Positions 17,201 through 17,298 of a DNA stretch of 64,000 bases are shown piece after piece. The stretch lies in contig JAKFBS010000008.1 of the NCBI GenBank assembly GCA_036677065.1, positions 64,001 to 128,000 on the forward strand, read 5' to 3'. Source of the stretch: Bdellovibrio sp. GTDB taxonomy: Bacteria > Bdellovibrionota > Bdellovibrionia > Bdellovibrionales > Bdellovibrionaceae. The position numbers were made by a program, and so were the translations under genes. Every line of letters starts with the position of its first letter. Positions within the stretch are counted from its first letter, which is position 1. Under the pieces are notes generated by a model. It was given only the letters and a program-made list of their open reading frames with translations. It was not told where the DNA came from and searched no databases.

Positions 17201-17298
17201 CTTGTTTCCTTGCGTGTCTGCGACACGACTCTCTCTTTGTACCACTTACTCATCAGGCGAAATTGCCTTACTCATCGGTGGAGTTTGTTTTTATAAAT

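Follow-up and report, generated by a model that had tools for sequence, protein, structure and literature searches.

What is the symmetric hairpin that precedes rplY, the gene of ribosomal protein L25, in this Bdellovibrio sp., and why does its internal loop resemble loop E of 5S rRNA, to which L25 binds? To answer this we analysed the 64-kb stretch of DNA that contains the gene (the window), together with the rplY leaders of relatives within the genus, family, order and phylum and of an outgroup from other phyla.

The rplY leader and its loop-E-like hairpin

The rplY gene lies on the minus strand (16514..17200, ATG start at 17200) and encodes a two-domain bL25/CTC protein of 228 aa. The product matches Ribosomal_L25p (E 7.4e-18) and TL5_C (E 7.3e-28), aligns with Thermus L25/TL5 chains (E 1.1e-27) and begins with MSKQRIEL, an N-terminus common to its relatives. 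Judged by these matches, the gene downstream of the hairpin is a normal bL25. At its C-terminus the protein has a long Ala/Pro/Lys-rich tail, AAPVVAAAAAPAAAAGGKAPAAAAGAKAPAAAKPAAKK (residues ~187-228, window 16514-16640, minus strand), the length of which varies among relatives. On the minus strand rplY is separated by a 98-nt spacer from its upstream neighbour prs, and its downstream neighbour is pth. Beyond pth there is a 366-aa ORF (14119-15219), which we take from its sequence to be ychF. A long ORF starting with GTG at 17245 was rejected as coding because relatives use the ATG as their start and differ by insertions or deletions in that stretch.

On the minus strand the terminator scan found no terminator-like site in the prs-rplY interval, and it did not list the terminator-like hairpin that follows rplY. 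No convincing promoter was matched in the prs-rplY spacer; the sole match of the promoter scan was weak and lay inside prs (17447-17420). Metatranscriptome contigs (runs X15, X16 and X20) searched for the region 16400-18300 cover only the coding part of rplY, 16514-17194. Within the 64-kb window the only Rfam family that passes its gathering score is the c-di-GMP-I riboswitch aptamer RF01051, at 3317-3404 on the minus strand (67.6 bits, E 4.4e-11). The features of the locus are as follows; the Shine-Dalgarno (SD) and terminator entries are readings of the sequence.

17299..18258, minus strand: prs (ribose-phosphate pyrophosphokinase), upstream neighbour of rplY
17278..17281, minus strand: 5′ strand CCAC of the outer stem, paired with 17242-17245; invariant in seven genomes
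17269..17276, minus strand: 5′ loop strand GAUGAGUA (GAUG + AGUA); first position G or A, the rest invariant in seven genomes
17255..17268, minus strand: inner stem AGGC (17268-17265) / GCCU (17258-17255); three of its four pairs change on both sides
17247..17254, minus strand: 3′ loop strand GAUGAGUA; first position G or A, the rest invariant in seven genomes
17242..17245, minus strand: 3′ strand GUGG of the outer stem; invariant in seven genomes
17213..17227, minus strand: REP-like hairpin CGUGUC-GCA-GACACG, downstream of the loop-E-like hairpin and upstream of the ribosome binding site
17207..17211, minus strand: likely SD sequence AAGGA, 6 nt before the ATG
16441..16468, minus strand: terminator-like hairpin GGCGAUG-GAAA-CAUCGCC with a U run behind it, downstream of rplY

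From 17281 to 17242 the minus strand reads CCAC-C-GAUGAGUA-AGGC-AAUUUC-GCCU-GAUGAGUA-A-GUGG, letter for letter the hairpin of the preliminary description, which had placed it about 40 nt upstream of the start; its 3′ end is 41 nt before the ATG at 17200. C17277, just before the 5′ loop strand, faces A17246, and the inner stem closes a hexaloop, AAUUUC (17264-17259). With ViennaRNA the 40-mer forms both stems at −12.3 kcal/mol (z −3.07), a value equalled by 1 of 200 shuffles; the folding energy of the full 106-nt leader is unexceptional (z −1.21). The window contains two copies of the 10-mer GATGAGTAAG, both in the hairpin, against an expectation of 0.13.

We found one detectable 5S rRNA gene in the genome (101.3 bits, G000:C4:32475-32591), and the loop E strands of its product are GAUGGUA/GAGAGUA. 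These are also the strands of the E. coli RNA that was crystallised with L25 (1DFU; PMC1920249, Table 1). Loop E consists of seven non-Watson-Crick pairs and has its symmetry centre at G75-A101 (PMC1976436), and L25 is the protein known to bind the loop E motif in 5S rRNA (PMC4408793).

Across the leader loop GAUG faces AGUA twice. This pairing of strands corresponds to the half of 5S loop E formed by nucleotides 72-75 and 101-104. Letter by letter, the leader loop doubles the GAUG/AGUA half of the loop E in this genome's 5S rRNA and adds one central pair. The comparison with the genome's own 5S rRNA, proposed in the preliminary description, thus finds the GAUG/AGUA half shared with GAUGGUA/GAGAGUA; since these are the strands of the genome's own loop E, each leader strand is one nucleotide longer (8 versus 7 nt), as had been stated there for E. 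coli loop E. Like 5S loop E, the leader has an internal loop that is symmetric and rich in purines, lies between two Watson-Crick helices and sets GAUG against AGUA; its inner stem covaries among relatives and its outer stem never varies. It differs from the loop of seven non-Watson-Crick pairs and strands GAUGGUA/GAGAGUA in having 8+8 nt with GAUGAGUA on both strands, so that both halves are the same GAUG/AGUA module, and in having an inner helix of only 4 bp with a hexaloop.

The three-dimensional geometry of loop E comprises sheared, reverse-Hoogsteen and bifurcated pairs. The 16 nucleotides of the leader loop would form non-canonical pairs of the loop E type (G.A, A.U, U.G, a central tandem G.A/A.G, G.U, U.A and A.G), and this central tandem G.A of the 8x8 loop may give a geometry unlike that of the loop E centre. 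Both leader halves copy 72-75/101-104. In the 5S complex an amino group of L25 has been placed close to U80, in helix IV (PMC1976436), so the side that L25 contacts may be the other half of loop E.

A two-module loop-E descriptor gave nine matches in both strands of the whole 3.39-Mb genome, the rplY hairpin included. It missed the true pairing in the 5S rRNA, where the adjoining helix has only two standard pairs before a mismatch, and instead joined a 5S strand to a downstream GAAAGUA.

Conservation of the doubled loop and insertion of a REP-like hairpin

We searched for the pattern RATGAGTA-N6-70-RATGAGTA in 52 genomes of the genus and obtained 22 matches, eight of them hairpins that immediately precede rplY. 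The loci of the other 14 contain no L25 match; we take six of the 14 to be start-codon contexts at uvrA/uvrC-like N-termini, and one is antisense to a CDS. A reversed-pattern control is not valid for this search because ATGAGTA reads identically backwards.

The hairpin aligns without gaps in seven genomes of the genus. Its outer stem is invariant, and its inner stem occurs as AGGC/GCCU, AGAC/GUCU, AAGC/GCUU and CGGC/GCCG. All 48 cells of the seven-genome alignment pair and three of the four inner pairs change on both sides, an outcome equalled by 2 of 500 shuffles; slid-alignment controls pair in 21-50% of cells. The eighth genome, G007, has the same 8x8 loop with a much longer inner stem. Covariance model R1 finds one match per genome, at rplY, in its seven training genomes (74.5-78 bits), matches that hold by construction, and elsewhere in 151 genomes of the family it finds nothing above 26.9 bits. 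With no second copy found by R1, the hairpin is not a dispersed repeat. All four metagenome contigs with the hairpin have an L25 gene just downstream, and in one metagenome variant A.C replaces the A-U pair adjoining the loop. The preliminary description had made its proposal depend on conservation of the structure, and this is upheld by the seven genomes and four metagenome contigs, with compensatory changes in the stem.

The REP-like hairpin separates the loop-E-like hairpin from the ribosome binding site. Its pattern, CGTGTC-NNN-GACACG, has at least 10 copies in the genome, compared with ~0.2 expected for 12 fixed letters. Copies often have GT/GC flanks, and a second copy of the palindrome in the window is found at ~15234-15248, in the spacer that separates pth from the ychF-like ORF. 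A hairpin separates the loop-E-like element from a new SD of the AAGGA/AAGG type in this window, in G052 and G041 and in one metagenome contig. It is absent from that position in G023, G016, G062 and G067, where the loop-E-like hairpin stops 22 nt short of the AUG and a few nt from the SD. A like hairpin occurs upstream of the element in G016, G062 and G067 and is missing in G023.

The element in this window does not overlap the SD, and it is the insertion of the REP-like hairpin that places the putative operator 41 nt from the AUG. Control by L25 may for this reason be weaker here, or may depend on the packing of the two hairpins. Among the insertion-bearing copies the loop is invariant and the inner stem is compensated (AGGC/GCCU, AAGC/GCUU and AGAC/GUCU), and these compensated changes argue that the hairpin is still under selection despite the insertion.

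The RAUG/AGUA module in rplY leaders of the order

L25 was found in 366 of the 384 genomes of the order. We read 116 rplY leaders; L140 and L153 were dropped for want of an N-terminal match, and the partial gene of G060 was left out. A descriptor fixed before any class was named requires RAUG opposite AGUA with each side flanked by at least three pairs (at least three standard pairs at the R.A end, offset 0-1, and at least three pairs within 0-4 positions of the other end). In a set of 87 leaders of the order, from which two truncated leaders were omitted and in which four class A loci (see below) were not yet included, the descriptor matches 36, as compared to a mean of 1.25 and a maximum of 5 in 100 dinucleotide shuffles. 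On the opposite strand it matches 0 of the 87, and its background in the genome of the window is 510 matches, or 0.013 per 172 nt. The match in L092/L032 looks spurious, as it combines a distant AGTA with a site that lies within prs.

Assigned to classes by eye and by regular expression, 55 of the 116 leaders contain the module, a count for which the classes were defined after looking and L124 and L138 were added by eye. Five architectures besides that of this window (class A) carry the module before rplY, with 5x5, 4x4 or 7x7 loops, some of them permuted. All classes share an A-U-G strand and an A-G-U-A strand.

Class A (genus g1, 8 leaders): 8x8 double module, the form of this window
Class C (g1, 22 leaders and 1 truncated; g40, 1 leader): NAC-RAUGG-CCUC...GAGG-AAGUA-GUN, with the SD AGGAG directly after
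Class P4 (g30, 7 of 7; g35, 1 of 1): GACC-AGUA-UCC-loop-GGA-RAUG-GGUC; 4x4, strand order swapped
Class P5 (g29, 8 of 8): AUAGG-AAGUA-GCC-loop-GGU-MAUGG-CCUAUG; the loop contains the SD and the outer stem the AUG
Class P7 (g54, 3 of 3): RAAAGUA-CUU-GAAA-GAG-GAUGAUA-UG; ribosome binding site inside
Class D7 (family f10, genus g10, 4 of 4): CUC-GAUGAUA...GAAAGUA-GAG-AGGA; full 7x7 loop, inner hairpins vary

In the class C fold, 95.8% of cells pair among 22 sequences and six pairs (35 cells) change on both sides, a covariation score reached by 0 of 500 shuffles. Its outer stem is GAC/GUC, AAC/GUU or CAC/GUG. Conservation extends to the terminal loop of class C (C-A-U-(N)-G-G-U/G-G; A1 columns 28-38, e.g. 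L006:1430-1497), which closes a strongly covarying stem and may be a second recognition element. The 7x7 loops of g54 and of g10 in f10, GAUGAUA/GAAAGUA, lie next to or over the ribosome binding site. By its letters, class A looks like class C, as the outer half, joined to P4, as the inner half. Because related genomes are not independent, the leader counts overstate the statistics; the comparative argument rests on the distinct architectures and the compensatory changes.

No trace of the module was found in 17 of the 48 leaders of the genus, and it was not found in any sampled leader of 21 other genera of the order. It is likewise absent from all 40 further leaders of the phylum (7 from family f6 and 33 from ten other families), many of which have very short spacers, and from the 28 rplY leaders of the outgroup from other phyla. 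Ten leaders from g18, g36 and g49 have a different conserved hairpin in place of the module. This hairpin, ...CCUYUCUAUYGGACUAGARGG..., has the SD in its 3′ strand and no loop-E-like letters, and it lies just before rplY (L107, L108, L110, L113, L117, L118 and L161-L164). Very short leaders from family f17, in another order of the phylum (L183, L185 and L187), share GGAAAGUAGGUA before AUGGAAC; they hold AAGUA and AAUGG letters, and no convincing hairpin in them passed the descriptor. Within the genus of the window, five module-free leaders (L018-L021 and L102) have a variable hairpin and then, around the start codon, the common sequence ...AGAAAGUARGCAUU(CC)AUGAAACAA.

A predicted L25 operator and its place among known leaders

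We predict, with a probability of about 0.7, that the hairpin serves as an autoregulatory operator of L25, acting through mimicry of 5S rRNA. It is positioned, as an autogenous leader should be, just upstream of the gene whose protein binds the mimicked rRNA site, and it is a gene-specific conserved structure with covariation. The preliminary description had named it a candidate L25 autoregulatory element, and that candidate status is backed by conservation at rplY only, by the compensatory changes and by the recurrence of the module. L25 without free 5S rRNA would bind the mimic on its own mRNA, bound L25 would hinder 30S loading at the nearby ribosome binding site, and L25 synthesis would thereby track the supply of 5S rRNA. 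The operator of this window would have to act across 41 nt. The forms in g29, g54 and g10 fit direct occlusion, as their structure contains or adjoins the SD or AUG.

More tentatively, and at slightly worse than even odds, the Bdellovibrionales may have a family of L25 operators built from a portable half-site, RAUG/AGUA by a helix, that is used singly, doubled, at full size or permuted. Some genera would wrap the half-site around the SD and start codon, and this window would hold the doubled symmetric form. The two-fold symmetry of the doubled form could allow L25 to bind in either orientation, or two copies of L25 to be bound.

Among other explanations, it is unlikely, if still worth serious thought, that the leader RNA is conserved for a different role, as an element of mRNA stability or processing or as the site of a protein other than L25, and that it is like loop E only because GAUG/AGUA is a stable, common RNA building block. 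Such a role would suit the structure and covariation, which show selection acting on the fold of the RNA without pointing to any one ligand; it would also suit the 8 pairs of the loop, in place of 7, and the different conserved hairpin that g18, g36 and g49 have at the corresponding position. Yet the descriptor is tied to rplY (36/87 leaders versus 0.013 per 172 nt genome-wide), R1 finds no second copy, and six architectures keep the loop letters while stems, strand order and distance to the start change. This constancy of the loop letters fits a shared ligand that reads the loop, and L25 is the protein known for binding the loop E motif (PMC4408793).

We consider it improbable that the hairpin is a former operator, inactive in this window after a REP-like insertion displaced it and brought a new SD. 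Such a loss could be read from the insertion and new SD in this window, G052, G041 and one metagenome contig, as opposed to the 22 nt of four relatives, but an inactive hairpin does not sit well with the invariant loop and compensated inner stem of the insertion-bearing copies.

Still less probable is a DNA site, in which the two copies of GATGAGTAAG, 22 bp apart, form a direct repeat for a transcription factor acting on the rplY promoter. Changes between relatives preserve stem pairing and no repeat outside the loop, the two strands of the relatives differ (RAUGG versus AAGUA), swap order and are spaced by ~10 to 46 nt, and the descriptor is strand-specific (0/87 on the opposite strand). These observations outweigh the exactness of the 10-bp direct repeat, its spacing of about two helical turns and the fact that the rplY promoter was not located. 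Chance is hardly credible: short purine-rich repeats do occur and ATGAGTAA is also a common start-codon context, but the descriptor excess in leaders, the nine whole-genome two-module matches, the compensatory changes, the R1 matches only at rplY, the L25 gene after four of four metagenome elements and the rarity of GATGAGTAAG all speak against it.

The predicted operator by 5S mimicry can be set beside the L25 leader of E. coli, where L25 represses its own translation via the 5′ UTR (PMC4408793; PMC10931766, section 3.8). The premise of the preliminary description that E. coli rplY is autoregulated is thus correct according to PMC4408793. Control in E. coli involves a leader hairpin before the ribosome binding site and a weak SD (Aseev, Bylinkina and Boni 2015; PMC4408793), and the authors of that paper state that their hairpin is not loop-E-like at first glance. 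A 2024 review, in its section 3.8, describes features of the E. coli type only in species with a short one-domain L25 (PMC10931766). Like the gammaproteobacterial rplY leader (RF03131), the Bdellovibrio hairpin is in the 5′ leader of rplY. Unlike the E. coli leader, it resembles loop E plainly, and its gene encodes not a short one-domain L25 but the long two-domain form (228 aa, L25p + TL5_C). RF03131 (threshold 34.1 bits) has no match in the genome of the window, with a positive E. coli control, and Rfam 15 identifies no family in the prs-rplY spacer at E up to 10. The comparison with Rfam L25 leader models that the preliminary description had proposed thus yielded no match to the hairpin.

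Our literature search found no L25 leader described outside the Enterobacteria and Gammaproteobacteria, and Eckert and Weinberg 2020, supplementary files aside, list only the gammaproteobacterial one (PMC7247131). L25 feedback in searchable papers concerns only E. coli and close relatives, with an operator unlike 5S rRNA (PMC4408793, PMC10931766). The Bdellovibrio leader is a directly testable case of molecular mimicry for L25, before a long-form gene, and its natural variants (one half-site, two, full 7x7 and permuted) are a ready-made mutational series for L25 recognition. A likely class of cis-regulatory RNA is thereby added to a predatory bacterial lineage with few known. Should the order indeed have a family of such operators, this would be the first operator for a long L25 of the CTC type, and autoregulation of L25 by plain 5S mimicry, a point left open by the E. 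coli work, would be possible.

Mimicry of an rRNA site is a feature of the S8 and L1 leaders. The L20, S15 and L4 leaders are likewise cited as molecular mimicry (PMC4408793). As in L20, S15 and L4, a free ribosomal protein is predicted here to bind its own mRNA at a replica of its rRNA site; unlike in those leaders, the protein would be L25 and the motif that of loop E.
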